Positions 2,915 through 50,009 of a stretch of DNA of 64,000 nt are shown piece by piece. The translations under genes were made by a program, and so were the position numbers. Each line of letters begins with the position of its first letter. Position 1 is the stretch's first letter. The notes beneath the pieces were generated by a model. The model searched no databases. It saw nothing but the letters and a program-made list of their open reading frames with translations, and was not told the DNA's origin. This DNA is from Aestuariivita sp. (GTDB taxonomy: Bacteria > Pseudomonadota > Alphaproteobacteria > Rhodobacterales > Rhodobacteraceae): assembly GCA_026710045.1 (NCBI GenBank), contig JAPORU010000047.1:455-64454 (forward strand). The letters are read 5' to 3'.

Positions 2915-2915
2915 G

Positions 2916-27719: not shown

Positions 27720-28021
27720 TGTCAGGTCTCCACGAGTGTATTCGTTCTATCCTGCACGAGACACAAGCTTTATAGTGGGTTGTGCTGTGTGATGGTGACA
27801 CGCGTTTGAGGCGCTGTCGATGGTCAGCAAATTGTAGGTGACATAGCGACCGATATCCACACCGTTCAGAATATGCATCTTAATCAAAGGTCGTAGTTGC
27901 AGAGGACCGGGTAAAGTTCAGAGTAGGTTTCTCCGGGTTAACTTCATCAGTCATCTTAAAGACTTCTCCAGTGCCACATCGGATATGGACAAGTGGGGCT
28001 GTCATTTGAGTTTCTCTTGAT

Positions 28022-29209: not shown

Positions 29210-30045
29210 AGCTCACCTCTCAGGTACCAGAGTTCAGGAAAGAGCTCGACGTCCAGCATGCGCCGGAGATACGACACACCCTCTGTGCCGCCGGTTCCGC
29301 GCTTAAAGCCGATCACGCGCTCTACAGTTGTGACGTGGTTGAAGCGCCAGCGACGGAAGTAATCCTCGAGGTCCACCAGCTTTTCACCCAGCTCGTAGAG
29401 CGACCAGTAGACATCGATGTTTTTATAAACGGTCTTCCATCGGGCCTGAATGTTCGGTACCGCTGTATGTGGGCTGTCGAGCTGCGGTGTAGGTACGTCA
29501 TTCTCGTGGCCGTCTACCGTGCGGAACAGGTGGCGCACCACTTCGTCGTAAAAGCTTGGTTGCGTCAGTTCTTTCAACAGCATCGCGTGAACCTCAGGCA
29601 CATGGACATGTGGCCGCAGCATGTTCGGGTTGCGGTTGCCCAGAATATATTCGATCATTCGGTATTGATATGACTGAAAACCCGAAGATTGCCCCAGCGC
29701 CTTGCGGAACGTGGTATAATCTGCAGGCGTCATGGTGCGCAACACGTCCCATTGGTTGTTTAGCTGTTCAAAGATGCGGCTGACACGGGCCAGCATCTTG
29801 AACATGGTTGCCGTGTCACCTGATTTTAGCGCGTCGCGCGCGGCACCTAATTCGTGCAGAATCAGTTTCATCCACAATTCGGACGTCTGGTGCTGAATGA
29901 TGAACAGGAGTTCATCGTGGGCCGTGCTGAGCATCTGCTGAGCATTGAGAACTGGCGAAAGATGGAGATAATCGCTGTAGGACATGACGTCCTTGAGATC
30001 CATCTTGGCACCGCCGGTTCCGGGATTGTCGACCGATGTGCTCAT
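29206..30045 (-). CDS. kynA: tryptophan 2,3-dioxygenase
   Basis: 279 aa. YSDYLHL...HDELLFIIQHQTSELWMKL...GTGGTEGVSYLR. A 4-nt overlap with kynU. Confidence 0.9.
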   Translation of the reverse strand: MSTSVDNPGTGGAKMDLKDVMSYSDYLHLSPVLNAQQMLSTAHDELLFIIQHQTSELWMKLILHELGAARDALKSGDTATMFKMLARVSRIFEQLNNQWDVLRTMTPADYTTFRKALGQSSGFQSYQYRMIEYILGNRNPNMLRPHVHVPEVHAMLLKELTQPSFYDEVVRHLFRTVDGHENDVPTPQLDSPHTAVPNIQARWKTVYKNIDVYWSLYELGEKLVDLEDYFRRWRFNHVTTVERVIGFKRGTGGTEGVSYLRRMLDVELFPELWYLRGEL

Positions 30046-31661
30046 GACGACGTTTCCCGGAGTTTGAAACGTTGGATCTTGCCGCTTTCGGTTTTTGGCA
30101 AAGTCTTTGCGAAGACCACTGAGCGGGGATACTTGTATGGGGCGATGGTCGTCTTGACGTGATCCTGCAGATGCTTGATCAAGGCATCGGAAGGGACCGC
30201 GTTTATATCCAATACGACATGTGCCTCGACAATAGTGCCACGCTCTTCATCCGACGTGCCGATTACTGCGCATTCCGCGACCGCCTCATGGGCAAGCAGC
30301 GCCGCTTCGACTTCCGGTCCGGCGATGTTGTAACCTCCTGAAACGATCATATCGTCGTTACGAGCCGCAAAGTGGAAATAGCCTTCGTTATCTTGGCTGA
30401 AGGCATCACCGGAGATATTCCAGCCGGCTTGAACGTATTCCATCTGACGCTCGGCGTGCAGATATCGGCAGCCGGTAGGCCCTCGGATGGCGAGTCGTCC
30501 AACTTCGCCTCGTGGTAGTTCTGCGCCATCGGGGCCGATCACCTTGGCCTCGTACCCGGTCACGGGTTTGCCTGTGCAGGCGGGCTTATGATCTTCAAAT
30601 CGGTTGGTAATGAAAATGTGCAGCATCTCGGTAGCGCCGATTCCATCCAACATGGGCTTGTCGGTTTTCTGTTGCCATTCGTCATAGACAGGTGCCGGCA
30701 AAGTTTCACCTGCTGAGACGGCAGCGCGGAGGGAAGAGAGGTCTGCGCCTTCATCCATGGCTCGAAGCATGGCTCGATACGCGGTGGGCGATGTGAAGCA
30801 GACGGTTGCCTTATAGGTTTCAATGATCTCAATGATGTTTGGCGGAGAGGCATTTTCCAAAAGCGTCGCTGTGGCCCCGAAACGCAAAGGGAAGATCGCG
30901 AGTCCACCGAGCCCGAAGGTGAAGGCCAAGGGTGGAGAGCCGATGAACACATCGTCTGGCTGTACGTTGAGTACTTCCTTCGCGTAGCCGTCCGCGATGA
31001 TCAACAGGTCGCGGTGGAAGTGCATGGTCGCCTTGGGGTTGCCGGTTGAGCCTGAGGTAAATCCGATCAAGGCGACATCGTCCTGGGCCGTTGGAATGGA
31101 TTCAAACTGAACGGGTTTGGTCAATGCCAGTCGGTCAAGTTCAGCATCATGGTTGGCGGTGCCGTCAAAGCCGACGACGGTTTTCAGATGTGCGCTGTTC
31201 TTGGCGCAGGCAATCATCTCGTCCATCAGCCGGGTATCGCACAAGGCATGTGTGATTTCGGCTTTCTCGACGTATTTGGCAAGCTCGCTGACGCGTAACA
31301 TCGGCATGGTGTTTACCACTGCCGCGCCGACCTTGGTCGCTGCCAGCCAGCACGCCACCATGGCTGGGTTGTTGGCGGAGCGGATCAGCACACGATTGCC
31401 TGGCCGCACACCCAGGTCTTCAACCAGCGCATGGGCCAAACGGTTGGTCCAGTCGGTCAGTTCCTTGTAGGTGCGTCGCCGCCCGTTACCGATCAGCGCC
31501 GTGTGATCGCCAAAGCCTTTAGCGACCATTGTGTCGGTCAATTCACGAGCCGCATTGAGACGATCCGGATAGTTGAACCCCTCCAGTAACAGATCCGGCC
31601 ATTGTTCTATCGGGGGGAGATGGTCGCGTGTAAAGGTGTCACTATGTGCTGATGGTTTCAT
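30042..31661 (-). CDS. aryl-CoA ligase, most like 2-aminobenzoate(anthranilate)-CoA / benzoate-CoA ligase
   Basis: 539 aa. AMP-binding motifs FTSGSTGNPKA and SGDAFSQDNEGYFHF...GKIQRFKLR. The N-terminus TFTRDHLPPIEQWPDLL is typical of aromatic acid-CoA ligases. The specific assignment rests on operon context. Confidence 0.75.
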   Translation of the reverse strand: MKPSAHSDTFTRDHLPPIEQWPDLLLEGFNYPDRLNAARELTDTMVAKGFGDHTALIGNGRRRTYKELTDWTNRLAHALVEDLGVRPGNRVLIRSANNPAMVACWLAATKVGAAVVNTMPMLRVSELAKYVEKAEITHALCDTRLMDEMIACAKNSAHLKTVVGFDGTANHDAELDRLALTKPVQFESIPTAQDDVALIGFTSGSTGNPKATMHFHRDLLIIADGYAKEVLNVQPDDVFIGSPPLAFTFGLGGLAIFPLRFGATATLLENASPPNIIEIIETYKATVCFTSPTAYRAMLRAMDEGADLSSLRAAVSAGETLPAPVYDEWQQKTDKPMLDGIGATEMLHIFITNRFEDHKPACTGKPVTGYEAKVIGPDGAELPRGEVGRLAIRGPTGCRYLHAERQMEYVQAGWNISGDAFSQDNEGYFHFAARNDDMIVSGGYNIAGPEVEAALLAHEAVAECAVIGTSDEERGTIVEAHVVLDINAVPSDALIKHLQDHVKTTIAPYKYPRSVVFAKTLPKTESGKIQRFKLRETSS

Positions 31662-32817
31662 GTTTTTCTCTTTGATGTGTTGCGAGCGTCTGACGCGCGA
31701 TCACCACACGCTGGACATCTGAAGCGCCTTCGTAAATGCGCAAGGCCCTGACTTCGCGGTAAAGTCTTTCGACGGTTTCACCTGTCTTTACCCCGTCCCC
31801 GCCGTGCAATTGCACGGCTTTGTCGATTACCTGGTGCGCTTGGTCGGTGGCGAAGAGCTTTGCCATTGCCGCCTCGCGGGTAATGCGCGGTGTACCATTG
31901 TCCTTTGCCCAGGCGGCGCGGTAGACAAGAAGCGCGCTGGCATCGACAGTCAGTGCCATGTCTGCGACATGCCCTTGTACTAACTGTCGATCCGCAAGGG
32001 CCGTGCCTTGAATCTGACGTGTGGTGACGCGCGTTAAAACTTCATCAAGTGCCCTGCGCGCAAAACCTACAGCCGCCGCTCCCACCGTCGAGCGGAACAC
32101 ATCGAGAACCGACATGGCAATTCTAAACCCTTGTCCTGGTGCGCCGATCATGGCCGTTACGGGCACATGGACCTCGTTGAACGTCAGCGTCGCTAGCGGG
32201 TGCGGTGCGATGGTTTCCAGGCGTTCTGTAATCTCAAGACCCGGTGTGTCGGCAGGTACGATGAAGGCTGACATACCCTTTGCGCCCGACGCTTCACCGG
32301 TCCGTGCAAATACTGTGTACATATCCGCAATACCGCCGTTCGAGATCCAGGTTTTCTTGCCGTGCAGCACATAATGTCTGCCGTTCCGTGTAGCACTCAT
32401 CGTGTTGGCCGCCACATCCGAGCCACAGCCAGGCTCGGTGAGGGCGAAGGCCGAAATGGCCTTTCCTGCGCGCGTTAACGGTAACCACTCTGCCTTTTGC
32501 TCTGGTGAACCAAACAGGGAAATTGCTCCTGTGCCCAGACCTTGCATAGCAAAGGCGAAATCGGCCAGCCCGTCGTACCGGGCCAAGATTTCCCGGATCA
32601 GGCAGAGCGTGCGCACATCGAGTGTTCCCTCTTCTGCCCCAGAATGTATGGCAAAACCGGCCTCGCCGAGTATGGTAACGAATTGACGACACGCGGCGTC
32701 GGTATCGGAATGATCCACGGCGCTTAGGCTTGCGGCAGACCATGCGTCTAGTTCTGCTGCTAAATTGCGGTGTTTCTCTTCGAAAAAGGGCCAGGTGAGA
32801 AAGCTCTGATCCATCAT
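31642..32817 (-). CDS. acyl-CoA dehydrogenase family protein
   Basis: 391 aa. FALTEPGCGSD...KTWISNG...RIYEGASDVQ. Confidence 0.9.
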   Translation of the reverse strand: MMDQSFLTWPFFEEKHRNLAAELDAWSAASLSAVDHSDTDAACRQFVTILGEAGFAIHSGAEEGTLDVRTLCLIREILARYDGLADFAFAMQGLGTGAISLFGSPEQKAEWLPLTRAGKAISAFALTEPGCGSDVAANTMSATRNGRHYVLHGKKTWISNGGIADMYTVFARTGEASGAKGMSAFIVPADTPGLEITERLETIAPHPLATLTFNEVHVPVTAMIGAPGQGFRIAMSVLDVFRSTVGAAAVGFARRALDEVLTRVTTRQIQGTALADRQLVQGHVADMALTVDASALLVYRAAWAKDNGTPRITREAAMAKLFATDQAHQVIDKAVQLHGGDGVKTGETVERLYREVRALRIYEGASDVQRVVIARQTLATHQREKHETIST

Positions 32818-33629
32818 TAATCGCCTTCGAATACAGGTCGCTCTTTGGCAACAAAAGCGTGGTAGGCGCGGTGGAAGTCCCGCCCTTGCATACAGATCGC
32901 CTGTGCTTGTGCCTCGGCCTCAATGGCCTGATCGATACTCATCGACCATTCTTGTGCTAGCATCGTTTTTGTCATCATGTTGGCCCAGGTCGGCCCATCC
33001 GCAATACGTTTCGCCAGGCCTAGGGCTGTTTCTGTCAGCTGTTCCATTGATACAGTCTGGTTGAAATACCCCCATGCCACGCCTTCCTCGGCACTCATGG
33101 ACCGCCCTAAATAGAGCAGTTCTGCCGCGCGCCCCTGGCCAATAATCCGGGGCAGGATTGCACAGGCGCCCATATCGCAACCTGCCAGGCCTACTCGGTT
33201 AAACAGGAAAGACGTCTTCGCTTCAGGTGTGGCAATCCGTAGATCAGATGCCATTGAAATGATCGCACCTGCACCGGCACAAACGCCGTCAACGGCGGCA
33301 ATGATCGGTTTGCCGCAATTTACCATTGCTTTAACCAGATCACCGGTCATGCGTGTGAAGGTCAGAAGCTCTTTCATGCTCATTCTGGTCAGCGGTCCGA
33401 TGATGTCATGCACATCACCTCCGGACGAGAAGTTACCCCCGTTCGATGCAAAAACCACGGCCTTTACGCTATCGGCATAACGCAGATCGCGAAACCAATC
33501 CCGGAGTTCGGCATAACTCTCAAAGGTTAGAGGGTTTTTCCGTTCCGGCCTGTCCAATGAGACCGTCGCGATTCCATCTTCGATCTTGCACAAGAAGTGC
33601 TGTACGTCAGTTCGCATTTTTTTTCTCAT
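32817..33629 (-). CDS. enoyl-CoA hydratase/isomerase (crotonase) family protein
   Basis: 270 aa. [11 protein letters not shown]...[10 protein letters not shown]...[16 protein letters not shown]. Confidence 0.9.
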
Positions 33630-34089
33630 CGTTCAGGGTTTCATTCATTCGGTCCAGCCGCGCCATCATGTCCTTGATGTCATTTTCATCAAGCTTGCCG
33701 AGGATCTCATCAATCCATGCTTCATGTGCTGTGGAATGCGCGGCAAACATGTTGCATCCCTTCGCTGTCAGACGCACCAATTGAGCGCGGCGGTCCCCCG
33801 GAACCGCAACACGTAATGCCAAGTCTTCCTCGGTGAGTTTGTCAACGATTCCGGTAACGTTGCCACCTGAAACCCTCAATAGTTTGGAGATCTCGCCCAT
33901 CTTCAATCCGTCGGGTGCCCGAGATAACGCCGACATCACGTCAAAGCGTGGAAGTGTCCAATCGTGGTCGTTTCTGAATCTGCGTCGGATTTCATCTTCG
34001 ATCAGGCTGCTTGCTTTCAATAGTTTCAGCCAGAGTCGCAAGCGTTTCTTTGAGAGTGGCTGAGTGGCCTGATTCGGCTTGGGGATCAT
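33607..34089 (-). CDS. MarR-family transcriptional regulator
   Basis: 160 aa. Winged-[13 protein letters not shown]...[22 protein letters not shown]...[10 protein letters not shown]. Embedded in the operon, overlapping both neighbouring genes. Confidence 0.85.
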
Positions 34090-34829
34090 ATTTCGCCTCC
34101 TGAAACACTCAATGCATGTCCATTAACAGACCGAGCGATTTCGGAGCAGAGCCAAAGTACAGTGCCCGCGATTTCGTCGGTTTGAATAAATCTTTTTTGT
34201 GGGTTTTTTGCGTAGAGGGCTGCGCGGGCCTTGTCTTCGGACATACCGGTCTTTTCGATAATGTTGGCGATGGAGCGTTCCAACATTGAGGTTTCAATAA
34301 AGCTGGGGCAGATTGTATTGACGGTAATACCGGTGGCGGCAAGTTCCAGCGACAGTGCGCGAGTGAGACCAATGACACCGTGTTTTGACGCGCAATAGGC
34401 CGAGACATAGGGATAGCCTTTCAGGCCTGCTGTTGACGCAATGGCAATCAAACGACCCCAAGCTGCGGCCTTCATGTCCGCTAAAGCCGCTTGCCAGACA
34501 TTCACAACGCCAATGAGGTTTACGGCTAGCATTGCCTGCAGTTGGCTGGTTGCCATTTGAGCGAAGGGGACACTGTCTGCTATTCCTGCATTCGCAATGA
34601 CCACCGAGATTGGCCCCTGTTGTGAGCGCGCCGCGTTAAACGCTTCAACCACGGCGCCTGCATCTGTCACATCGCACAATTGATAGGGCAGGTTTTGCGC
34701 TTGTAACGGTTCTTCGTGACGTCCTATAATTGTGACCCGTGCTTCGGCCTTGGCAAGCGTCCGCGCGGTCTCTGCACCGACTCCCGTGCCGCCACCGGTC
34801 ACAATGATATGTTTGCCGGATAGGGTCAT
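34086..34829 (-). CDS. SDR-family oxidoreductase (3-hydroxyacyl-CoA dehydrogenase-like)
   Basis: 247 aa. TGGGTGVG Rossmann motif and the YCASKHG catalytic motif. Confidence 0.85.
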
Positions 34830-37117
34830 ATTTGGATTGTCTCTATCTCGCGGTCAGCCAGACGCCAGGCCTGATCGCGGCCCGCTTCGTACGGCTTGGC
34901 CCAATCAGCTTGTCGATCTCCAATCTTTACGCCTTGGTGAAGGGTCCAGTAAGGATCGGCCAGATGCGGACGCCCCACGGCGACCAGATCGGCGCGACCG
35001 GCCATCAGGATTGAATTGGCGTGATCTGCGTCGTAGATATTGCCTACCGTCATGGTTTTGACGCCTGCGTCATTTCGGATACGGTCACTGAACGGCGTCT
35101 GGAACATACGACCATAGACGGGTTTGGCATCGGTCGTGGTTTGCCCGGCGGACACGTCAATGAGATCTGCACCGGCATCGGTGAATGCGCGCGCAATTTT
35201 CACCGCCTCTTCGGGTGTAACACCTGCGTTTCCTACCCAGTCGCTGGCCGAGATGCGCACTGACATGGGTTTGGCCTTGGGCCAAACAGCGCGCATGGCC
35301 TGAAATACCTCCAGCGGATAACGCATCCGGTTTTCCAGGCTGCCACCGAATTCATCCTGACGGGTGTTGGATACCGGGGAGATAAAGCTGGAGATTAAAT
35401 AGCCATGTGCCGCGTGCAGTTCAATCATGTCAAAGCCCGCGTGGTCGGCCATATGGACAGATGCGACAAATTGGTTGCGGACCTCGTCCATCTCGGTCCG
35501 CGTGATTTCGTGCGGGGTCGCGTTGTCTACGGACCAGGGGATGCTTGATGCGCTCACAAGAGTCCAGTTCCCTGCAGCGAGTGGCTTGTCCATTCCCTCC
35601 CAACCGATATTGGTGGAGCCTTTGCGGCCCGAATGTCCGATCTGGCAGCAGATCTTGGCGTCTGTAAACTCATGCACGAAATTGGTTAACCGCTTCCAAC
35701 TCGCCTTATGCTCGGGTGCATAAAGACCCGGACAACCTAGTGTGATCCGGCCCTCGGCTGAGACACAGGTCATCTCGGTATACACCAATCCTGCACCGCC
35801 TTTAGCGCGTTCGCCATAATGGCACAGGTGCCAATCGTTTGGGATACCGTCCTTGGCTAGGTATTGTGCCATGGGTGAAACTACGATCCGATTCTTCAGT
35901 TTAAGGTCCCGAAGCTTTAATGGCACGAACATGGGTGCGCGAACCGGCGCATTTGCGGACATTCCCGCCTGATTCATGAACCACCGCTCGGCGTTTTCCA
36001 TCCAGTCTGGATCGCGTAGCCGTAGGTTTTCATGGCTGATCCTCTGTGAGCGTGTCAGCATCGCGTAATTCAATTGCACTGAGTCGAACCGCAGGTAGCG
36101 CTCTACCTGTTCGAACCATTCCAGCGAGTTGCGAGCCGCCGATTGCAAGCGTAGTACTTCGAGCCGACGCTCCGCTTGATACCGGGTGAAGGCTATATTC
36201 AGGCTGTCTTCGATGTGAATGTATTTGGCCAGCGCAATGGCGCATTCCATGGCAAGTTTGGTGCCGGAGCCAATCGAAAAATGTGCCGTGGCCGAGGCAT
36301 CCCCAAGCAGAACCACGTTCTCGTGATGCCAGGTTTCACACAACACCCGTGGAAAGCGAAGCCAAGCGGAGCCACGGATGTGGTTGGCGTTGGTCATTAA
36401 AGAATGCCCTCCGAGGTGATCTTCGAAGATTTTCTCGCAAACCGCAATGCTTTCTTGCTGGGACATGTCGGCAAAGCCGAACCTGTCAAAGGTTTCCTGT
36501 GCGCATTCCACGATGAACGTTGCGGTGTCGTCATCGAATTGATAGGCGTGGACCCAGACCCAGCCATGCTCCGTCTCTTCGAAGATGAAGGTAAAGGCAT
36601 TGTCGAATTTCTGGTGTGTTCCGAGCCAAACAAACTGGCACAACCGCTGATCGATACTGGGTCGGAAGCGATCTGCGTAGAGCATGCGCGTCTTGGAATT
36701 TAGACCGTCGCTGCCCACCACCACGTCAAAGCTGTGGCGATATATTTCGGCACTCTCGGCTTCCGTCTCAAACCGGAGTTCGACACCCAATTCACGCGCC
36801 CTGTCTTGTAACAGCAAAAGCAGTTTTCTGCGCCCGATTCCGCAGAAACCATGCCCTGACGAGATGTGTGTTTCGCCTCGGTAATGCAGAGTGATATTAT
36901 CCCAATAGGCAAAGTTGTCGCCAATAGCCTTGGCCGAGACGGGGTCATTATTTGTAAGGTTACTGAGCGTCTCGTCCGACAAAACAACGCCCCAGCCAAA
37001 AGTGTCGTCACAGCGGTTGCGCTCGATGACGACTACCTCGACTGTCGGATCGCGTAGCTTCATTGATATCGCAAAGTAGAGCCCCGCAGGGCCGCCGCCT
37101 AAACACGCAATTTGCAT
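34826..37117 (-). CDS. bifunctional FAD monooxygenase / OYE-type NADH:flavin reductase (2-aminobenzoyl-CoA monooxygenase-reductase / salicylyl-CoA 5-hydroxylase family)
   Basis: Start trimmed to [20 protein letters not shown] (GxGxxG). The N-terminal half is a flavin monooxygenase. The C-terminal half is old-yellow-enzyme-like ([11 protein letters not shown]...[14 protein letters not shown]). Confidence 0.8.
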
Positions 37118-38902: not shown

Positions 38903-39420
38903 ATGGTTGTGAATCGGACGTGCGATGCACCGTCGCTATCGTGACGATCGACAATTCGCCCATGAACGTGACGACCTCTGTCGCAGTGCGCAAGGGCTCC
39001 GGGATTTGATGGATCAGATCGAAACCGACAGTACCCGTAAGGTCGTTGTCCTGATCTGCATCGGTCAAATTTTTTTGTAAGGGCTGACATCAAGGAATTC
39101 GGCCGAACACCGGTCGCGCCGTATCAACCGAAATGTGCGTAGGGGATCGGCGATGTGTAAAGCCTTGGGTTGTCGTCATTCATGACACCGATTTGCGCGG
39201 TGGTTTGGAAACGGCTATGGATTGCCGCCATCGGATCGTTGACACAGATGCAAACGCTTGATCGTCGAAAGTGAAGTTCGAATGATAAGCCGAGAACGGC
39301 TTTCTTCCATTTTTTGACGCATCATAAGGGCGGAGGATGACGTCAAGGTATGTTCAGGACAGCTTGATGTGAACGATAGCCTGCACATGCTGAACAACCC
39401 TGATGAAGGATAACATGTGT
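38903..39420 (+). pseudogene. decayed enoyl-CoA hydratase (crotonase/FadB N-terminal-like) pseudogene
   Basis: Crotonase blocks are readable across three frames, separated by stops. They are VAIVTIDNSPMNV, LRDLMDQIETDSTRKVVVLICIGQIF(stop), ADIKEFGRTPVAPYQP and KPWVVVIHDTDLRGGLETAMDCRHRIV(stop). The end coordinate is approximate. Confidence 0.7.
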
Positions 39421-39616
39421 GCTCTTTTCTGTTCAAGGATTTGGGCTTGGAAGCCAATACCGAATGAGAGCCGGTTCCCATATCGTGTCAAGCGTCCTCA
39501 TTACCCTTCTCGTGGTCCACATGTTTGTTCTTCGCTGAACGGTCGCTCGCGTGTATCCGAATTCAACATGGTTTGATGTTTCTATAACACGTGAGCGACG
39601 TGTTTTCGGCCCGTTC

Positions 39617-40360
39617 TTACTGGACGGTTTTTTGATCAAGTGTTTTGTCACAAAGCTTGTTAATTGCCGTATGAAGTAAAACGGTAAGAATGGCGAGCGT
39701 GAGGAGTGCCGCGAACATAAGGTCTGTTTTCGCGCGTCCATTTGCTAACAGCATTAGATACCCGAGACCGCGTGACGCTCCCACCCATTCGCCAATGATG
39801 GCGCCAATGGGAGCATACACAGCGGCCAATCGCAGGCCCGAAGCAAACCCGGGTTTGGCTGCGGGAATTCGGATATGCCACATGATTCGCGTTGGTGATG
39901 CGCCCATGATACGCGCTAAGTTTAGCCATTCCGGGTTGGTTCGCATGAGTGCATCAAAAAAAGATGATGTAATTGGGAAATAGATAATTATGAGCGCCAT
40001 GAATATCTTTGAACTCAATCCATATCCGAGCCATAGGGTCAAAATTGGCGCTAAAGCGAACACTGGGATGGCTTGACTGAATACCAGCATCGGTCTTACC
40101 AATGTCCGTGCCATCGGTGAGGCCGCTAAGACAATGGCCGATAGACCTCCCAGAAGGGCGCCAAAGGCTAAGCCAAGCAAGACTTCAATCATGGTGATCG
40201 ACGCATGTTCAGCCAGCAAGGCCCGGCTTGTCCAGATTGTTTCTGCAACGAGGGTGGGGGGTGGCAAAATGAAGCGCGGAACATCAGAGATAACTATGAT
40301 GCTTTGCCAGAATGCGAGACCGACAAGAGTGGCCGCAATTGCGCCTTTCCAGCCACTCAT
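39617..40360 (-). CDS. ABC transporter permease (NitT/TauT family, ThiX-like)
   Basis: 247 aa with six TM segments and a binding-protein-dependent transport signature region. Confidence 0.85.
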   Translation of the reverse strand: MSGWKGAIAATLVGLAFWQSIIVISDVPRFILPPPTLVAETIWTSRALLAEHASITMIEVLLGLAFGALLGGLSAIVLAASPMARTLVRPMLVFSQAIPVFALAPILTLWLGYGLSSKIFMALIIIYFPITSSFFDALMRTNPEWLNLARIMGASPTRIMWHIRIPAAKPGFASGLRLAAVYAPIGAIIGEWVGASRGLGYLMLLANGRAKTDLMFAALLTLAILTVLLHTAINKLCDKTLDQKTVQ

Positions 40361-40550
40361 GATATCACTATTGGAGTGTTGCCGTGGGACAAAATGGAGA
40401 GCAATCGGACTCGTGTAACGTCAACTGTGAGCAAATGGCATTTCGGTGTACTCTTCAAGCTCGCACAAAGGATTATAAAGGTATGGAGTGGTTCTTTGGA
40501 GGAAAGTCGATGTGAAGGTCCCGTGATGTTGCGGCAGGCGGGTACAAAAA

Positions 40551-41288
40551 TCATGTTCCAGATCTCAACTCTTTGAGCAGTTCTGCTTGGCTTTTCATAA
40601 CCTCATGATCATCGATGGATCGTGGTATCGATCCAGATGGAGATTTTATTTTTTGTAAACCATGTTTTCGCATAATAAAGATGTTTTGTCCGAGTCGGGC
40701 CGCTTCACCTGGATCGTGGGTTACAAGAAGTACGGTACAGCCGGAGAGAACAGACGTTGTTAATTCTTGCATGTTTGCACGGGTTACCGCATCAAGCGCA
40801 GAGAAGGGTTCATCCAGAAGTACGATGGGACAATCTTCCATGAGCGTGCGGGCAAGAGCCGCACGCTGACGTTGTCCACCAGAAAGGGCATGGGGTTTTT
40901 TCTTGCCATGGTCGCGCAAACCAACGCGCTTGAGCACATCGGAAACTTTGTCGACATCGGGCTTCTCGCCTCTCAGGCGTGATCCAATTGAGACATTGTC
41001 CGATGTTGACAGCCACGGAAGAAGGAGATCATCTTGCGCCATCAACGCAATGTGACGTGGCTCTGATCTTAATTGACCGTGAAAATCTATTCCTTCTCGG
41101 AGCCCCGCAAATAACTTTAGGATTGTTGACTTTCCAACACCACTCGCTCCAAGAAGGCAGGTCCATTCGCCATGCGGCAAATCGAGGTGTACTCCATCAA
41201 AGATCAAAGATCCGTCAATTGACGCGGATCCTGATAGCTGCATCATACGTGCATAATTCTTCATTGAAATTCGTGACACATTCATCAT
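40551..41288 (-). CDS. ABC transporter ATP-binding protein (ThiZ-like)
   Basis: Walker A GASGVGKST, signature LSGGQRQR, Walker B IVLLDEP. Confidence 0.9.
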   Translation of the reverse strand: MMNVSRISMKNYARMMQLSGSASIDGSLIFDGVHLDLPHGEWTCLLGASGVGKSTILKLFAGLREGIDFHGQLRSEPRHIALMAQDDLLLPWLSTSDNVSIGSRLRGEKPDVDKVSDVLKRVGLRDHGKKKPHALSGGQRQRAALARTLMEDCPIVLLDEPFSALDAVTRANMQELTTSVLSGCTVLLVTHDPGEAARLGQNIFIMRKHGLQKIKSPSGSIPRSIDDHEVMKSQAELLKELRSGT

Positions 41289-41428
41289 CTCAGTGCATGT
41301 CTTGAGATCGATTTCATAACCGGGAGCACGGCCCTTTCAGGGATGGTGACTTAAGTGGATAGGACCGATAGCCGCTCGTCGAGAATGGATGGGTTGAGTA
41401 CAGGCTCAAATTTTTGTGCAATGTGGAT

Positions 41429-42364
41429 TTAATCTTCTCCGAGATCGATCGCCAATTTCGAGACGGGTCGATGACCCTCGACAAGCCCTGCGTCAGACAT
41501 GAAATCCTCAAACCGGGAATAACGTCCCTTGTCCAGAGCGGCTGGACGTAGCGCAAAGCGGGGCAGGGTATCGATCCAAGCCTTTGCATTGAGTTCATCG
41601 TCGAGTTCGGGTGAATAATTCCGGAATATGTTCCAGCTAGCATCCGGGTTGTTGACAATATATTGGGTGGCCAACTCTGTTGCGCGCAGAAAGCGCCGAA
41701 TAGCATCCGTGTTCATGCGATCCGTGTTCGCGACATAAATCAACTCGTCATAGGTTGGTACGCCTTCTTCTTCTACATAGAAACAGCGCCCCTCAATTCC
41801 CTCTATCTCCATCTGGTTCAGTTCAAAATTGCGAAAGGCGCCGATGACGGCATCGACTTGTCCTGACATTAACGCGGGTGATAACGAGAAATTGACATTG
41901 ACCAATTCAATCTCGTTCAACTGTACCCCATGTCGTTGCAGCATCGTCGTGAGTAGAGCTTCTTCCACGCCGGCTACAGAAAAACCGATCTTGCGTCCTT
42001 TCAGCTGGCTCAGTGAATTGATGGGACCTTCTTTCAAGACAAGAAGGCAATTGAGCGGCGATGCAATCAGAGTTCCAACCCGTATAAGCGGCAGTCCTTC
42101 GGCAACTTGAAGGTGCTGGGATTGTTGATAACTGACGGCTAAGTCCCCGCTTCCGGCCGCGACTAGCTTGGGCGGGGCAGATGGATCAGCGGGTGGAATG
42201 ATCTCGACTAATAGATTTTGATCGGCAAAATAACCTTGCTCCTCTGCGATAATGATCGGCGCGTGATTTGGGTTTACGAACCAGTCAAGTAAAAGGGTAA
42301 GTTTGTCCTGTGCGGTCGCGGGAGTTGCGAGTAGGAGCATGATGGGAATAATGAAGTAACGCAT
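41429..42364 (-). CDS. NMT1/THI5-like ABC substrate-binding protein (ThiY-like, pyrimidine-precursor uptake)
   Basis: Start trimmed to MRYFIIPIMLLLATPATA (signal peptide). LLLDWFVNPNHAPIIIAEEQGYF is typical of NMT1/THI5-like SBPs. Confidence 0.75.
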   Translation of the reverse strand: MRYFIIPIMLLLATPATAQDKLTLLLDWFVNPNHAPIIIAEEQGYFADQNLLVEIIPPADPSAPPKLVAAGSGDLAVSYQQSQHLQVAEGLPLIRVGTLIASPLNCLLVLKEGPINSLSQLKGRKIGFSVAGVEEALLTTMLQRHGVQLNEIELVNVNFSLSPALMSGQVDAVIGAFRNFELNQMEIEGIEGRCFYVEEEGVPTYDELIYVANTDRMNTDAIRRFLRATELATQYIVNNPDASWNIFRNYSPELDDELNAKAWIDTLPRFALRPAALDKGRYSRFEDFMSDAGLVEGHRPVSKLAIDLGED

Positions 42365-42528
42365 GAGCGTGTCCTTTATGTTTTTTTGGTGATCTCTTTG
42401 GCTTTGCTGAGAAGCGGTGTTATAGAGTGTTCTGGTCGACTTTTGGGCTGGATGAATCACAGAGAGAATGTCTGGTCAGTAAGCGATGGCTTAACGTATC
42501 ATTGGATTGTGCCAACACGCGGAGGGTC

Positions 42529-43344
42529 TCAGAATGTCACATGTGAGTCGTCCCAACGTTCGGTCCAGATGTTATGAAAGTGGTGAATGGGTCCAAAGCC
42601 TTTTCCTACAGAAAGTTTGTCACTCTGTCGGATGGCCTGATGCAACCAATGATGCGACGTTTCCACGGCCTGCGTAAGTGTCCAGCCCTTGGCTAATCCG
42701 GCGGCGATCGCCGAAGAATAACTGCATCCGGTTCCATGGGTGTTGCAGGTATTGATTCTGGGTGTTTCGAGTTTGAGCCGTGTCTTGGTGTCCACAAGAA
42801 AATCTGAGCAGATTGCCTCCTTACCGTGACCGCCCTTCATTAAAATTGCCTTTGGCCCCAAGGCCATTAGGCCCGTGGCGCGGTCAAACATATTTCCGTT
42901 TGCATGACCAAGAAGTGTATTTGCTTCTGGAATATTTGGAGTCAGCAAATCCGCCCTCGGCAATAGATTGTCTCGCAGTGCATCTATGGCGTGGTCATCT
43001 AACAACGTGGCACCTGACTTAGCGACAATGACCGGATCAAGAACAATCGGACCGGAATAACCTTGCAGTGTTTTCGCAACGGTTTTGACAATTGATGATG
43101 ATCCCAACATTCCAATTTTGATTGCATCAATCAAAATGTCATCGAGAACAGCTTCAATCTGTGCCTGAATTGTCGTGTTTGGGATGAGATGGATGTCTGT
43201 CACCGATTGTGTGTTTTGTGCTGTTACGGCTGTAATGACGGAACATCCGTAGACACCCAGGGCGCTAAAAGTTTTAAGATCGGCTTGAATACCGGCTCCG
43301 CCGCCGGAATCGGATCCTGCTATGGTGAGTACCCGATAGATCAT
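42529..43344 (-). CDS. thiD: hydroxymethylpyrimidine/phosphomethylpyrimidine kinase
   Basis: Start trimmed to MIYRVLTIAGSDSGGGAGIQADLKT. The 39-codon N-terminal extension in the ORF track overlaps the riboswitch. Confidence 0.9.
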   Translation of the reverse strand: MIYRVLTIAGSDSGGGAGIQADLKTFSALGVYGCSVITAVTAQNTQSVTDIHLIPNTTIQAQIEAVLDDILIDAIKIGMLGSSSIVKTVAKTLQGYSGPIVLDPVIVAKSGATLLDDHAIDALRDNLLPRADLLTPNIPEANTLLGHANGNMFDRATGLMALGPKAILMKGGHGKEAICSDFLVDTKTRLKLETPRINTCNTHGTGCSYSSAIAAGLAKGWTLTQAVETSHHWLHQAIRQSDKLSVGKGFGPIHHFHNIWTERWDDSHVTF

Positions 43345-43404
43345 TATGTGTTGGCAAAGCCGTGACATCGAATGCATGTACACGGGTAAAAAGATGGAAA
43401 AAGT

Positions 43405-43500
43405 TGTGAAAACACCTGTTTCCTCCGCCGGTTCGAGCCGGATCAGGTTCAATGGGTTCACGCTGTGCGTATCTCAGCCCAATAGGGCTCCCCAACAGTT
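43405..43500 (-). promoter_or_regulatory. TPP (THI-box) riboswitch
   Basis: The minus strand reads GGGGAGCCCUAUUGGGCUGAGAUACGCACAGCGUGAACCCAUUGAACCUGAUCCGGCUCGAACCGGCGGAGGAAACAGG. This contains the conserved CUGAGA, ACCC..GAACCUGAUC and CCGGCG.AGGAA elements, directly upstream of thiD. Confidence 0.85.
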
Positions 43501-43571
43501 ATGTCATGATATAAGGACTATGATTGGACGATGTCAATAGGGTACTCATCAGTAATTTGATTTTGAGCGTG

Positions 43572-44030
43572 TCATTCCAGGAAGTCACCGGGATTGACGC
43601 GGCCGATGTTACCTAAGAGTTGACGTAAGAAACCTTGATTTGAAACCGAGCTCTCGGTGACACGTTGTGTAAGCAAAATCTCCCGTCCATCCGTTAAGTC
43701 ATAGGTCTCTATATTGCTCAAAACACCCTTTTCATCAAAGTTGATGGCGACGAGAGTTCGTTCGACGACTTCAGGTGCTTGATAGCCGAGGTGACGTACG
43801 CTCGACCGCATGTAATAGACTGCGCTCTTGTCAAGAATATCGGAAAAGGTCGCGGATCCTAAACGCGCTTCAATGCTATCACGGGTATCGACGCCAACGA
43901 CCAATTCTGCCAATTCTTCTTCACTGGGCACATATCCGTGATTTCGGTACTGTGACGTGCAGGCGACCAGACTGATGGCAGCTATGATTGTGCACGTGAA
44001 CAGAGCGTAAAAATTCAGGTATCGGGTCAA
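43572..44030 (-). CDS. bamE: outer membrane protein assembly factor BamE (SmpA/OmlA lipoprotein)
   Basis: 152 aa. Lipobox SLVAC followed by HGYVPSEEELAELVVGVDTRDSIEARLGS. Confidence 0.8.
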   Translation of the reverse strand: MTRYLNFYALFTCTIIAAISLVACTSQYRNHGYVPSEEELAELVVGVDTRDSIEARLGSATFSDILDKSAVYYMRSSVRHLGYQAPEVVERTLVAINFDEKGVLSNIETYDLTDGREILLTQRVTESSVSNQGFLRQLLGNIGRVNPGDFLE

Positions 44031-44119
44031 TTTTCCAACTGCACTTTTTTATATTTCAGTTGACTGAGGGGTTTAGTATAGAGTTTACGCCGTTGCTTCA
44101 AGAATGAAACGAGGTCTTC

Positions 44120-44665
44120 ATGTCGTCTCAATCACCGAATTCATTCAAAGTCGTCGAATTATCGCAAAATCGGGTTACAGACTTTCATCTTGAACCTTCA
44201 CGTGACGTACTGGATACTCTGGCAACGGATTTAGGTCTGACGACACTTAGAAAAGTGTGCTTTAAAGGGAAAATTCAGGCGCATGATCAAACCGATTGGA
44301 AGGTCAAGGGATGTATTACAGCACACGTTGTGCAACCATGCGTTGCAACTCTTGAACCGGTCATCACGTGGGTCGAGACATGTGTCGAACGACGCTATGT
44401 TGCAGACTTTGAACATCCGACCGGGGCCGAAATTGAAATGTCTGAGCAGGATGATACAATTGAACCGATTGGTGAGGAGATCAATCTTTGTAGTATCATG
44501 TTTGAGTCGTTGGCACTTGCCATTCCGACCTATCCTCGCCGCACAAACATTGACTTGGTCAACATGACCGTGACGGAACCTGAAAGAGAACCTCTAACCG
44601 ACGCGGACATGCACCCTTTCGCTAAGTTAGCGGACATGAGAAATGCGATGCGAGAGAAGAGTTAG
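44120..44665 (+). CDS. YceD/DUF177 family protein
   Basis: 181 aa. An acidic protein with the CV..LEPV core and a C-terminal PFAKLADM tail, divergent from bamE as in many Alphaproteobacteria. Confidence 0.7.
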   Translation: MSSQSPNSFKVVELSQNRVTDFHLEPSRDVLDTLATDLGLTTLRKVCFKGKIQAHDQTDWKVKGCITAHVVQPCVATLEPVITWVETCVERRYVADFEHPTGAEIEMSEQDDTIEPIGEEINLCSIMFESLALAIPTYPRRTNIDLVNMTVTEPEREPLTDADMHPFAKLADMRNAMREKS

Positions 44666-45091
44666 TATCTCTGTCGGCGATGTATATGTCCAGCCGGGCT
44701 GGTTCCTCCTCTCTTCTGCCTTCCCTGCAGGTGATCAAGAGTAAGCTAACGAGGAACATCGCATATTTACCAAGAGCAGAGAGCTCATCCGGTTTCTTCA
44801 AAGGGTTGTTGTATTCAACGGGCGGTCCGACAGAATGGGCGCGTTTTTGATTGAGGGACCCGCGTTATTCCGAGATCCGATGATGTCGATTCGAAAGGGA
44901 TTGGAAAACGATGTCGAAATCGCTATGAAGTTTTACGTACGACATAGACATTTACGCGTTTGACAGAATCTTGGGTTTCTTGAGGTATCTGAGTGCATAC
45001 TCTAATAATGGTAGCCCTTGATTGGCGCATGTAACTTCGATAAGTCGTCCCATCATTGTCACCGTGGAGACACGATTCCTTTACTTCTGCC

Positions 45092-45873
45092 ATGAATTTG
45101 ATTCCATGTTTTGTCCTTTCCCTGCCGGACTGCTTGGACCGGCGGAGCACGATTTCCGGGTCGCTTCGTGACATCGACCTTTCATTCGAGTTCTTTGATG
45201 CGGTGGATGGTCGCAATGGTCTGGATGACGACTCGGAACGACAGATTGACCGCGAGGCGGCAAGACGCGCCGGTGCGCATATGTCCGATGCAGAATTTGC
45301 ATGTGCGCTGTCACACATCAATATCTACCGCAAGATCATTGCCGACGCGATCCCCTATACTCTGATTCTAGAGGATGATGTTACGGTTGATCCATCCCTG
45401 ATCGATTTTCTTTCGGGGAAACATTATCAGGATGCGGACCTTACCCAGATTTATAGCAGTCCTAAAGGCTGTTATGTTCGAAGGGGGGGGGTAAACAGCT
45501 TCAGGGTGGGTACAGATCGTATGTGCGTCCTCCGCAGATCCCATGTCGTGGCGCCTGTGGCTATGTAATTTCATACGAAGCGGCGCATCACCTCGTCGCA
45601 CATGCCGTTCCGGTTCGGCAAGTCGCAGATTGGCCCGATTGTCTGCAAAGTCTGATTGCACAACAAAGATGCCGCGTGGTCTATCCAACGCTTGTTCGGC
45701 ATCCAAGACGAGGGGATGCGGAGTGGACATCCGTGATCGACACCGGTGGCCGAAAATCCAAGAAGGAAAGTCGGCGGTTTCTCGGTGTCTATATTCCGCC
45801 GTTCCGTAAAGTCATCCGAAGTTACCGACGTGGTTGGCGCAAGCTAATCTACAAACGCCTTCCCCGGCAATAG
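45092..45873 (+). pseudogene. family-25 LPS/LOS glycosyltransferase, frameshifted at a G9 tract (phase-OFF or sequencing artefact)
   Basis: The N-terminal part (ORF 45056..45568 frame) has the GT25 signature MNLIPCFVLSLPDCLDRR...SFEFFDAVDG. The C-terminal part (ORF 45523..45873 frame) is colinear with the downstream paralog, including RRFLGVYIPPFRK..SYRR. The two frames join exactly at G9 (45483-45491), and one extra G gives an uninterrupted protein of about 260 aa. Confidence 0.8.
45483..45491 (+). repeat. poly-G (G9) homopolymer inside GT25 copy 1
   Basis: Counted directly: aaGGGGGGGGGtaaac. Confidence 0.95.
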
Positions 45874-45915
45874 GCCCATGACACAGCGATCGGACAGCGG
45901 AAAGGTCGACTTAAT

Positions 45916-46683
45916 ATGATACCGACCTTTGTCATTTCCCTTTCCGACTACGAAGATCGGCGTCGCAGCATTGCCAGTCATCTCAATCAGTTGGGGATTT
46001 CCTTTGAGTTCTGGGATGCGGTTGATGGGCGGAATGGCTTGCCTACCATGTATGAACGTCAGATTGATCGTCAGGCGGCCAAAAAGGCCGGGCGGGCTCT
46101 GTCCGATACGGAATATGCATGCGCCTTATCGCATATTACTCTTTATCGTCGAATCGTTGCGGATCGGATCCCTTACGCCCTGATCTTTGAAGACGATGCG
46201 CTTCCTCTTCCTTCACTCCTTGATTTTCTTGCGGGGAAACATTGGGGGGGGGCGGACATAATCCAGCTATGGACAAGAAGAAGGACTTTTGTCAGACGGC
46301 GCGGTGCGAGGAAACTTTTCGCCGATCATGTATCGTATCTTGCTGCGCCGCGCATGAAAAGTCCCAGCACGGTGGCCTATACAGTTTCCTTATCGGCCGC
46401 CAGGACCATTGTCGACGAGGCACTTCCTGTTGACAAGGAAGCCGACTGGCCCTCCTGTGTTGATGATCTCATAAAGAAAAGGCAATTCCGCTGCATTTAT
46501 CCGCCGCTTGTTTGTCATCAATCCGTCGAAGGGTACTGCGAATCATCCATTGTCAGTGCGTCGAGCAGTATCGGCAACAAGGACAAGCGGAGGTTCCTTG
46601 GTGTCTATATCCCATCCTTTCGTAAGATGCTGCAATCTTATCGTCGGGCTCCTCTTAAATTGTTGTGCAAACGCCTTCCTTAG
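45916..46683 (+). CDS. family-25 LPS/LOS glycosyltransferase (intact, in frame through a G9 tract)
   Basis: 255 aa. MIPTFVISLSDYEDRRRSI...SFEFWDAVDGRNG is the GT25 (LgtB/LgtE/Lic2-type) signature. Roughly half the residues are identical to the restored upstream copy. Confidence 0.85.
   Translation: MIPTFVISLSDYEDRRRSIASHLNQLGISFEFWDAVDGRNGLPTMYERQIDRQAAKKAGRALSDTEYACALSHITLYRRIVADRIPYALIFEDDALPLPSLLDFLAGKHWGGADIIQLWTRRRTFVRRRGARKLFADHVSYLAAPRMKSPSTVAYTVSLSAARTIVDEALPVDKEADWPSCVDDLIKKRQFRCIYPPLVCHQSVEGYCESSIVSASSSIGNKDKRRFLGVYIPSFRKMLQSYRRAPLKLLCKRLP
46244..46252 (+). repeat. poly-G (G9) homopolymer inside GT25 copy 2
   Basis: Counted directly: cattGGGGGGGGGcggac, encoding H-W-G-G-A. Confidence 0.95.
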
Positions 46684-46967
46684 TCAAAGCGAGTTTACGT
46701 TATATCAAGTGGAGTCCGTCCCCGCGGATCATTTGATCCGGCTTTATCGGATAGACACCACCTCAACAACGGATTTCAGGCCGTCGTTTTCCGAATTTCC
46801 TTAAGGAATATCTAAAGAGGCCAATTAAGGTTGAAATTGATGTGTGAGAAAATGCGATCAGATCAAAGAGCTTCTCATGGGCCGACGCCAACGTACCCGC
46901 GTTCTAACATATTTTCAAAATGATAGCGAATTATCGCGGAGCCCAGGTGCCATGGTAGATCAGGAAA

Positions 46968-48227
46968 CTAAATGTGTCCGGCATCGTTGAACTGAACGCG
47001 TACATGTCTTTTTTTCCCGGCGCTTAATTTCAGGGGTGAATCATAGGAATCGATATCCAACATATGGCCTGTATTCGTAATTAGGTGATCGTTGATCCGG
47101 GCACCTCCGTCGTGAATGAGGCGTCTAGCCTCTTTTCCAGATGTCGCGAGACCCGATCGAACAAATATTTGCGCAATAGAAATTGGCAATTCTCGAATAG
47201 AAATTGAGATTGTTGGCATTGCATCGCCCAAGCCACCGCACTCAAATATGTCACGTGCGGTCTCCGCTGCAGCTTGAGCGGCTGTGTCTCCATGGCACAA
47301 TCGTGTAACTTCGTTGGCCAGAGTGATTTTAGCCGTATTGATCTCGGTGTCCTTTAGCGCTGCCAAACGATTACACTCGTCAATTGATAATTCGGTAAAC
47401 AGCTTTAGAAACCGACCAACATCGGCATCGCCCACATTGCGCCAGTATTGCCAGAAATCATAGGGGCTGAGCATGTCGGCATTCAGCCAGACGGCGCCTC
47501 CAACAGTTTTCCCCATTTTTTTCCCGTCGGATGTTGTCAGCAGCGGAGACGTAATGCCAAAGATATTCTGCATCAAGACACGGCGCGTTAAGTCGATTCC
47601 GTTGACAATGTTGCCCCATTGGTCGCTTCCACCAAATTGCAGTCGGCATCCATAGCGGCGGTTTAACTCGAGAAAATCATAAGCCTGAAGGAGCATATAG
47701 TTGAATTCCAGGAAGGACAGTGATTGCGCACGATCGAGTCGAGACTTGACGCTCTCAAAACTGAGCATCCGATTAACACTGAAGTGACGACCAAAGTCAT
47801 TCAAGAAGTCGAGGTAATTCAGATCGTTGAGCCATTCCGAATTATCCAGCATCAAGGCATCACTGTTTCCGTTCCCGTACTGCAGGTAATTTGAGAATAC
47901 GGATTTTATTCCGATAATATTGGCCGTAATGTCTTCAGTTGAAAGCACCGGGCGTTCATCGGCACGAAAAGATGGGTCGCCAATTCGTGTTGTACCGCCG
48001 CCCATAAGCGTAATCGGTTTATGTCCTGTTTTTTGTAGCCATCGCAGCATCATGATTTGCGTAAGTGAGCCGATATGAAGTGATTTGGCGGTTGCGTCAA
48101 AGCCGACATAGCCGATCATCATTTCTGAGCGGAGGGCCTCATCAAGTTCTTCAATATCGGTGCAATCCGCTAGAAACCCGCGTTGTATCAATACGGCAAG
48201 AAAATCTGATTTCGGATGGTAGTCCAT
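46968..48227 (-). CDS. tyrS: tyrosine--tRNA ligase
   Basis: 419 aa. A HIGS (HIGH-type) motif, a KMGKT (KMSKS-type) motif and a C-terminal S4-like domain. Confidence 0.95.
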
Positions 48228-48290
48228 GTTTTGGCCTCGAAAAAATTTATTGTGTCTTCTACAGGCAGTTTAGGGATAAAGGAAGAGATC

Positions 48291-49394
48291 ATGAATTCTC
48301 CAATAACCCGTTCAGGATCAGTCCGATCACTTGGTACTATGAGTGGTACGTCCTTGGATGGTATTGACGCGGCTATTTTAGAGACGGATGGGCATCAGAT
48401 CTTTCGGTTTGGCAAGAAGCGTTATCGTCCTTACAACGCAGATGAGCGCCGTATTTTGCGCGCCGGACTGGATCATTGGCAGGGGGCTGCAGTTATTCAG
48501 GCAGAGAATGTTGTCAATCGGGCGCATGCCGAGCTCCTAGCGGAGTTTCATGATTTTGAATTGGTGGGATTTCATGGTCAGACGCTGGCGCATGAACCGC
48601 GGGGGCGCGGAACATTGCAAGCGGGTGATGGAAAAGCGCTTGCGGATTCAGTCGGTACACCTGTTGTCTGGGATTTTCGTTCTGAAGATATAGTACGGGG
48701 AGGAGAGGGTGCCCCGCTCGCGCCATTTTTTCATTTTGCGTGCAGTAAGTGGATCGGTGTTACGAAACCTGTGTGCTTTCTTAATCTCGGTGGCGTTGGG
48801 AATGTGACCTATGTCAATCCACAATGTGATCGTCCGGAGCGTGATGAAGCCTTGCTGGCCTTTGATACAGGTCCTGCGAATGCGCTGATTGACGATCTCA
48901 TGCAGATCCGACAGGGTCTGACAATGGATAAGCACGGATGTCTTGCCAAGACTGGAAAGGTGAATACAGATATTGTTGACGCCTTTGGTAAGCATCCGTA
49001 CTTTGACCGCAAGCCGCCTAAGTCATTGGATCGAAATGACTTTCCAGAAATGCTTGAACTTGTGTCGAGAGAAACAGATGCAGACGCGGCGGCAACTTTA
49101 ACGGCTTTGTCTGTTGCGAGTATTGTTCGAGGACTGGAGCATTTACCATCTTTGGTTTCTCATATTTTAGTCACCGGCGGTGGGCGCAAGAATTCGGAAT
49201 TGATGCACAAACTGAGAGAGTCCTGTTCTTTCCCGGTCGACTCTGTTGAGTCGGTGGGGCTTGATGGTGATATGCTCGAGGCACAAGCGTTTGCATACCT
49301 TGCAGTGAGAGTCATGAAGGGTTTGGCAACAAGCGGGCCGTCAACGACGGGAGTTTCGGTCCCTGTTTCGGGCGGTATTGTGAGTAGACCATAG
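48291..49394 (+). CDS. anmK: anhydro-N-acetylmuramic acid kinase
   Basis: [14 protein letters not shown] at the N-terminus. Start at the internal ATG. Divergent from tyrS. Confidence 0.9.
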
Positions 49395-50009
49395 AGGCAC
49401 TACCAGTATCGTTTTGAATCCGTGCGACCAGTTCATATGGGCCTCAATGATTTTGCGGAAGGTGTTCTTTGAACGGTGATACGCTTGGCTTGACGCCACC
49501 TATTCCGCCATCTGCAACAGATTGCATCGTTAGGTCTGTCATTCGCGTCGTCTCTAAAGCACTTCATAACAGACCGAGTTCAGTGGACGATGCCGAATCC
49601 ATCTCCATTATGCAGCGCACACAAGGACCCCAAACGGACTCTTCTCTTCTAGTCGGCAATGGATGCGTTTGTGATTCCATCGTTCCCACATGAGCCTTTA
49701 CGTTGTCTTTCATGATGACGACGGAATGTTGCCTCAGTGGTTAATGAGGGGTGTCATAACGGAATTATATTTCTGTCGAGAGTCCTGCGTTTTGACATTT
49801 TGAGATCCGTGATTGCACGCGACAGAGCACAAAAGATCATATCTCCTTTCCTTTCGTGCGATCATAATGCGGCCACCCTAAAATTGCTGGACTCTGATTG
49901 AGAACATGTGGGGGAATCAGGCGTACATATGTTGACTTTCGTTGAATGTGATATGTTGCAAATGCGGCATTGTTCGATCAGTTTAAAAAATTGTGGTGCA
50001 TGATAGGTT

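Follow-up and report, generated by a model that had tools for sequence, protein, structure and literature searches.

Poly-G tracts in paired GT25 glycosyltransferase genes of a sponge-associated Rhodobacteraceae: probable phase-variable contingency loci with reciprocal frame states in two natural populations

The stretch of DNA considered here, called the window, is 64,000 nt of contig JAPORU010000047.1 (positions 455 to 64,454, forward strand) from assembly GCA_026710045.1, assigned to Aestuariivita sp. (Rhodobacteraceae). It contains two adjacent, paralogous genes for glycosyltransferases of family 25 (GT25), here copy 1 and copy 2, each with an internal run of nine G residues (G9). An earlier note, made from the sequence by eye, had proposed them as a phase-variable lipopolysaccharide (LPS) or lipooligosaccharide (LOS) locus, with one gene interrupted (OFF) and the other in frame (ON). 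The features concerned are:

44666..45091, + strand: intergenic region from yceD to copy 1, the presumed (not established) promoter region of the pair
45092..45568, + strand: copy 1, N-terminal frame as read with G9; truncated 158-aa product, OFF; Pfam PF01755, E = 1.9e-25
45483..45491, + strand: G9 tract 1, at codons ~131-133 of copy 1; in frame with G10 or G7
45492..45873, + strand: C-terminal 127 codons of copy 1, in the +1 frame, with the stop codon at 45871-45873; read only with G10 or G7
45874..45915, + strand: spacer between the two genes, 42 bp
45916..46683, + strand: copy 2, intact open reading frame (ORF) with G9; 255 aa, ON
46244..46252, + strand: G9 tract 2, at codons W110-G111-G112 of copy 2; truncated product with G8 or G10

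All 64,000 bases of the window (49.8% G+C) were scanned for runs. Apart from the two G9 tracts, no G or C run of seven or more is present; below these come three G6 runs, and runs of C reach five at most. Counts of G3, G4, G5 and G6 (552, 88, 18, and 3) drop about five-fold with each additional base, and extrapolation of this decay gives an expectation of ~0.02 G9 runs in 64 kb. Two are observed, and a 1.55-kb span of paralogous coding sequence holds them both. Tandem Repeats Finder returned no other simple sequence repeats (SSRs) of note in the window. The tracts occupy non-homologous positions, as alignment of the two copies makes clear: tract 1 covers R-G-G(-G) at residues ~130-133 of copy 1, where copy 2 has RRRGAR, and tract 2 covers W110-G-G of copy 2, where copy 1 has YQD.

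The length of each tract decides the frame. With G9, copy 1 stops at 45568 after 158 aa, and is annotated in that form by NCBI (MCY4300781.1); with one G added, or two removed, it continues to 45873 as a 260-aa product, which aligns colinearly with copy 2 (256 residues, one gap, 48% identity). For copy 2, G9 yields the complete 255 aa, and either G8 or G10 cuts the protein short. The part of copy 1 beyond the tract has no stop in the corrected frame. Its ratio of nonsynonymous to synonymous substitution rates (dN/dS) is ~0.20-0.23 against intact relatives, and its amino-acid identity to them is 74–76%, similar to that of the upstream half. By these measures the downstream half of copy 1 is indicated to be under purifying selection, rather than to be an old pseudogene.

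In both proteins the N-terminal ~105 residues align to the Glyco_transf_25 model of Pfam (PF01755), scoring ~90 bits where the cutoff is 24 (E ~2e-25). An AlphaFold2 model of copy 2, built on a 50-sequence alignment, has a predicted local distance difference test score (pLDDT) of 90.6 and a predicted template modelling score (pTM) of 0.87. Its 18 best fold matches in the PDB are all GT25 enzymes (E ~1e-10 to 1e-11, probability 1.0), and a sequence profile finds the same entries (E = 2e-16). A DXD-type motif is present at E92-D93-D94, with E92 and D94 invariant and D93 kept in at least 90% of the 50 homologues; the predicted GT-A fold and this motif together place copy 2 in GT25. Solved members of the family, including a bacterial beta-1,4-galactosyltransferase (8xc8/8xlz), human COLGALT1 (9evj), and Mimivirus R655 (9crz), have the same GT-A fold and DXD-type motif, but at only ~20% identity and template modelling scores of 0.5-0.65 their specificities are not transferable to the window genes. 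The C-terminal half and basic tail (RRFLGVYIPPFR..YRRAP.KL..KRL) are also particular to the subfamily, unlike the solved enzymes. On all of these points (two adjacent family-25 genes each with a G9, the isolation of that pair of tracts within 64 kb, their independent positions, the break in copy 1 exactly at its tract and its extension with G10, and the open frame of copy 2) the run scan, ORF list, Pfam match, translation and alignment bear out what the earlier note had read from the letters.

The note had also suggested comparing orthologous loci for differences in tract length, and this comparison gave a positive result. The window derives from sample SAMN13943197 (run SRR10996935); for that run, an ENA re-assembly and a Logan assembly both match the window at 100% identity, G9 tracts included. 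However, the 90%-identity cluster of truncated copy 1 also contains a 260-aa protein, P0138, identical to the predicted G10 product. It is encoded on a 2.58-Mb contig (ENA ERZ25067984, ctg17498_16x_l) with the gene order of the window: NMT1, thiD, bamE, yceD, GT25, GT25, tyrS, anmK. This locus (L172) is 99.58% identical to window positions 39093-49946, over 10.85 kb. In a base-by-base alignment, the differences are 41 SNPs (single-nucleotide polymorphisms), one additional G in each tract, a single-base indel at window position 39159, and a 36-bp palindromic insertion in the spacer. Of the other homopolymers of five or more in the compared stretch, none of 24 differs. Since both tracts are G10 in L172 (at 6392-6401 and 7190-7199), copy 1 is ON there and copy 2, called as 172 aa, is OFF; the state of the window is reversed.

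The spacer insertion (window 45874-45915, L172 6820-6859) holds a perfect palindrome, GTCGACTCCTTCTTGAAGGAGTCGAC, at L172 6832-6857. One possibility is that it acts as a hairpin terminator, another that it is a small mobile repeat, uncoupling copy 1 from copy 2.

The 2.58-Mb contig carries further genes of this kind. A third GT25 gene (P0139; locus L173, 8001-8819), ~69 kb from the pair, has a G9 tract and is ON. Its neighbors encode a lipid A acyltransferase, an NAD-dependent epimerase, an FkbM-type methyltransferase, WaaA (PF04413), a GT8 glycosyltransferase, and a Kdo/WaaP-family kinase; this GT25 gene and the neighboring FkbM-type methyltransferase gene are thus in an LPS-core locus. L003, a 1.18-kb contig assembled from a different sample in the same series, matches this locus at 99.66% identity and has G8 in the GT25 gene (OFF) where L173 has G9 (ON). 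The adjacent FkbM methyltransferase gene (L173 6896-7648, minus strand) has C8 in L173 and C9 in L003. A Joint Genome Institute (JGI) fragment, P0140, provides an in-frame G6 allele of the third GT25 gene. At L173 14949-15461 is a gene split at a G8 tract, which G9 would restore to a 293-aa protein; it has no Pfam hit, and is assigned to FkbM by motif only. FkbM-family genes with G8-G9 tracts are ON in some assemblies and split in others, and are probably part of one phase-variable glycan system with the glycosyltransferases. Another protein, P0005, was considered as an orthologue of copy 1 but was dropped; its synteny makes it orthologous to the third paralogue, next to waaA.

More distant loci were also compared, among them matches of a locus scan with a 10-sequence GT25 alignment (pruned from 19). 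One, L086, includes a 63%-identical relative of copy 2 with a C9 tract at codons 3-5 (OFF); L174, 99.97% identical to it over 6.8 kb and different only in the tract region, has C8 (ON). In two assemblies of one related organism (L170 and L171), a 72%-identical GT25 gene is OFF through a G9 tract in a 5' extension, and a JGI variant (P0141) has G5 and is ON; the same locus has a G10 tract in a GT2-like gene and an FkbM methyltransferase gene (L170 5372-6297) split at G9. Changes in tract length between near-identical genomes, as expected of contingency loci, therefore recur: window and L172 (G9/G9 vs. G10/G10), L003 and L173 (G8 vs. G9 and C9 vs. C8), L086 and L174 (C9 vs. C8), and L170 and P0141 (G9 vs. 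G5). Tracts within subfamily genes of other metagenome-assembled genomes (MAGs) include C19 (L005), G15 (L019), G9 (L022 and L033), and G8 (L036 and L044), all at codons other than those of the window genes except in L033, a Paracoccaceae MAG, where the G9 is at the codon homologous to tract 2. The second GT25 gene of L019 is split at a G17 tract. A 3x-coverage contig with two extra frameshifts (L085) was set aside as probably error-ridden. In the L022 gene (Nitrospira sp. SB0677_bin_15) the reading frame runs on across the G9 but shifts at an A9 near the 3' end (~4672-4680); an intact relative, P0051, is on record.

Overall, non-redundant genes of the subfamily contain 10 G or C tracts of at least eight in 21.9 kb, compared to five in 219 kb of flanking sequence, a 20-fold enrichment (binomial p = 7.5e-8). 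Distant GT25 genes (at most 40% identity, from the metagenome-contig matches listed, and used as a tract-frequency control only) have a single tract of at least eight in 77 kb. The over-representation characteristic of SSR contingency loci is thus found both within the window, as a unique pair of G9 runs, and across the subfamily.

The interpretation favored here, and judged probable, is that the two GT25 genes are SSR-driven contingency loci, with slipped-strand phase variation of surface-glycan enzymes. A hypermutable G tract would lie within the reading frame of each GT-A-fold enzyme, and slipped-strand mispairing during replication would add or remove one G, a change that would shift the C-terminal half, with its conserved ADWP motif and basic tail, out of frame (OFF) or back into frame (ON). 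The sampled population has copy 1 OFF and copy 2 ON, and in the other natural population the states are the other way round. The pair, along with the third GT25 gene and two FkbM-type methyltransferase genes, would probably yield combinatorial variants of a surface glycan, most likely LPS core or LOS. We infer the slippage itself, its reversibility and its rate; the selective agent may be recognition by phage or by the sponge host.

An LPS or LOS target is probable for the pair, judging from its family and from the third paralogue beside waaA. The assignment rests on these two points because the pair itself lies between housekeeping genes, with thiD, bamE and yceD (44120-44665, upstream of copy 1) to one side and tyrS and anmK to the other. 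The proposal of a phase-variable LPS/LOS locus is largely supported, with a qualification as to the target: tract polymorphism between populations agrees with it, but the pair is placed between yceD and tyrS, outside any LPS cluster. Embedding in an LPS/LOS cluster is found solely for the third paralogue, elsewhere on the chromosome.

Several observations weigh against phase variation of this kind. The window pair is not placed among LPS/LOS genes in the manner of a Neisseria lgt-type cluster, and no NCBIfam equivalog or family model matched either protein. Tract lengths are known from metagenome assemblies alone, the organism being uncultured. L172 and L173 are apparently from a long-read assembly, to judge by the name “ctg17498_16x_l” and the 2.58-Mb length, and at 16x coverage, homopolymer error could lie behind a call of G10. 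L086 and L174 (34,953 and 34,921 long) may come from the same reads or sample; if they share reads, the difference between them would represent within-sample heterogeneity or assembler behavior.

Of the alternatives, the one that survives best, although it is considered unlikely, is irreversible decay: the symbiont, being host-restricted, would be losing redundant paralogues to pseudogenisation, with the tracts no more than mutational hot spots, and the differences between populations would be one-way losses. Many of the assembled alleles are indeed OFF (copy 1 of the window, L003, L086, L170, the FkbM genes, and the second GT25 gene of L019); redundancy is plausible in an expanded family with several paralogues to a genome; and the L022 gene is frameshifted at its A9 rather than its G9. 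One-way loss does not, however, readily account for reciprocal states (OFF/ON and ON/OFF) in two populations of one species, for an out-of-frame half of copy 1 that is free of stops with dN/dS ~0.2, or for in-frame alleles three nucleotides apart (G6 and G9). The 20-fold enrichment of tracts, in genomes that otherwise avoid G and C runs, and their origin at many independent codons are expected if mutability is selected, but not if tracts are purged.

Sequencing or assembly artefact is given only a small probability. Copy 1 might truly be G10 and miscalled in the window, or the G10/G10 of the other assembly might be the miscall; sequencing, with long reads in particular, is prone to error at homopolymers of 9-10, and the ending of short-read contigs within 8-45 nt of tracts (L003 and L023) shows that assemblers have difficulty there. 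Against a miscall in the window, three assemblies of short-read data agree on G9/G9, and Illumina sequencing was used in the source study (PMC8163846, sponge microbiome, Robbins et al.), to which we link the sample through the ENA label “ROBB21”. Against a miscall in the long-read contig, its G10 gives exactly the intact frame in copy 1, where a random error would as readily give G8, and all 24 other homopolymers of five or more agree between the window and L172. Length differences are also found between short-read assemblies, in both directions (L003/P0140, L170/P0141, and L086/L174). Some of the OFF alleles would be restored by +1 and others by -1, which argues against any one systematic miscalling bias. 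Ends of short-read contigs are located at L003 positions 1-17, L023 positions 6008-6061, and the start of L002 (window 45271), the last being the Logan contig, which ends inside copy 1, 212 nt upstream of the tract; such ends may reflect tract-length heterogeneity that breaks assembly graphs.

Least probable, though compatible with phase variation and not exclusive of it, is expression despite the frameshift, in which transcriptional slippage (established for RNA polymerase on long A/T homopolymers in endosymbionts) or ribosomal +1/-1 frameshifting would yield some full-length copy 1 from G9, the tract tuning its level: the intact downstream frame would fit, but there is no specific sequence support, stimulatory structures having been sought only through the terminator scan, and the observed length polymorphism in DNA suffices to explain the data.

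The scan for promoters and terminators at 44600-47000 gave nothing above shuffle background, promoter-like matches such as that at 44980-45009 included. Other features of the window are ordinary: a thiamine pyrophosphate riboswitch (43403-43504, minus strand) upstream of thiD, NMT1 and ABC transporter genes; an Rfam match to the Cis8 (Ruegeria) small RNA (1752-1879, plus strand); and tRNA-Pro(GGG) (25751-25827, plus strand). A block of co-oriented minus-strand ORFs at 28001-36000 has a G+C fraction of 0.55-0.57, compared to ~0.49 elsewhere in the window.

The subfamily is found mainly in uncultured marine MAGs, several of them named as sponge-associated. The Paracoccaceae MAG OZ244066.1 (3.1 Mb; L021, L029, L031, L032, and L033) has at least six diverged paralogues at separate sites, with 44–51% identity to the window genes, a number that indicates strong expansion of the family in an uncultured marine lineage. 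In L019 (Rhodobacter sp. MAG), a gene for a TbpB_B_D-type surface lipoprotein (2319-3401, minus strand; Pfam score 27 bits against a cutoff of 26) has a G10 tract near its 5' end (3352-3361) and adjoins the GT25 gene with G15 and the one split at G17. The Nitrospirales MAG OY763007.1 contains a 2.4-kb element of the IS1595 insertion sequence (IS) family (L006 2369-4781; also L007-L018, L020, and L028) in at least 16 copies, 99.96–100% identical, with 22-nt terminal inverted repeats, 8-bp target-site duplications at most copies examined, and a transposase matching Pfam DDE_Tnp_IS1595 (E = 2.5e-47). As a passenger it has a full-length GT25 gene of the same subfamily, which is unusual for an actively transposing IS, and suggests a route by which the subfamily may move between phyla. 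No trace of IS1595-type terminal repeats was found near the window pair.

These observations allow a broader but tentative conjecture, which we think possible rather than likely: that a horizontally mobile GT25 subfamily spread over Rhodobacteraceae/Paracoccaceae, Nitrospirales and Poriferihabitaceae, and multiplied in one genome by riding on the IS1595-family element, has repeatedly evolved homopolymer switches, with convergent, community-wide stochastic variation of LPS-core glycoforms in sponge-associated bacteria. If so, the switches would presumably serve escape from phage or from recognition by sponge phagocytes, and contingency loci would be a hallmark of marine mutualists and not of animal pathogens alone.

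Nearly all that is known of contingency loci comes from animal pathogens that can be cultured; in the present case, natural populations of an uncultured sponge-associated Rhodobacteraceae have been caught in reciprocal ON and OFF states, and the device recurs in a GT25 subfamily common to unrelated uncultured marine bacteria, several of them named as sponge-associated. Switchable decoration of the LPS core would be a concrete candidate for the means by which a symbiont escapes its filter-feeding host and phage, and the hypothesis of surface variation in symbionts can be checked with existing metagenomic reads. There is a practical consequence as well: since genes of this kind are annotated in MAGs as truncated or hypothetical fragments (MCY4300781.1 and MCY4300782.1 are one gene), surveys of functional potential miscount them. 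A search of the literature on phase variation and SSRs in sponge symbionts, Rhodobacteraceae and Roseobacter found no earlier description, and SSR contingency loci appear undescribed in Rhodobacteraceae and in sponge symbionts.

Among known systems, lic2A of Haemophilus influenzae resembles the window genes in encoding a GT25 galactosyltransferase for LOS that is phase variable through an intragenic repeat; the repeat there is a 5' tetranucleotide, (CAAT)n, rather than a mid-gene homopolymer. The lgt locus of Neisseria gonorrhoeae and N. meningitidis is like the pair in its adjacent paralogous LOS glycosyltransferase genes, its intragenic poly-G tracts, and its combinatorial glycoforms generated by frame shifts. 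GT25 members, lgtB and lgtE, are also part of that locus; its tract-bearing genes are not known to include these, unlike those of the window. Neisseria is moreover a human pathogen, whereas the organism here is an uncultured marine sponge-associated Rhodobacteraceae and the pair lies between housekeeping genes. The Neisseria tracts are in lgtA, lgtC and lgtD (PMC2192423).

The Campylobacter phasome includes poly-G tracts in genes for LOS, capsule and flagellar glycosylation (PMC6321876). As here, G8-G11 tracts are numerous and concentrated in glycosyltransferase and methyltransferase genes for surface glycans, and near-identical strains differ in ON/OFF state; the two cases are unlike in phylum, lifestyle and GC content, and the evidence in the present case is from metagenome assemblies only. 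Within the Alphaproteobacteria, SSR contingency loci are known from the Bartonella adhesin gene badE (PMC11466379). The view that the mechanism had not been described in this class consequently does not hold, but in its narrower form, for Rhodobacteraceae and sponge symbionts, it appears to stand. Bartonella likewise has frameshifts at mononucleotide SSRs and ON/OFF variation among natural isolates; badE, however, encodes a trimeric autotransporter adhesin rather than a glycosyltransferase, and its switching has been shown experimentally in animal passage. Homopolymeric tracts have been proposed as a general prokaryotic device (PMC2831843). Set beside these systems, the window pair is largely supported as a slipped-strand contingency system of the classic type, here new to sponge-associated Rhodobacteraceae.

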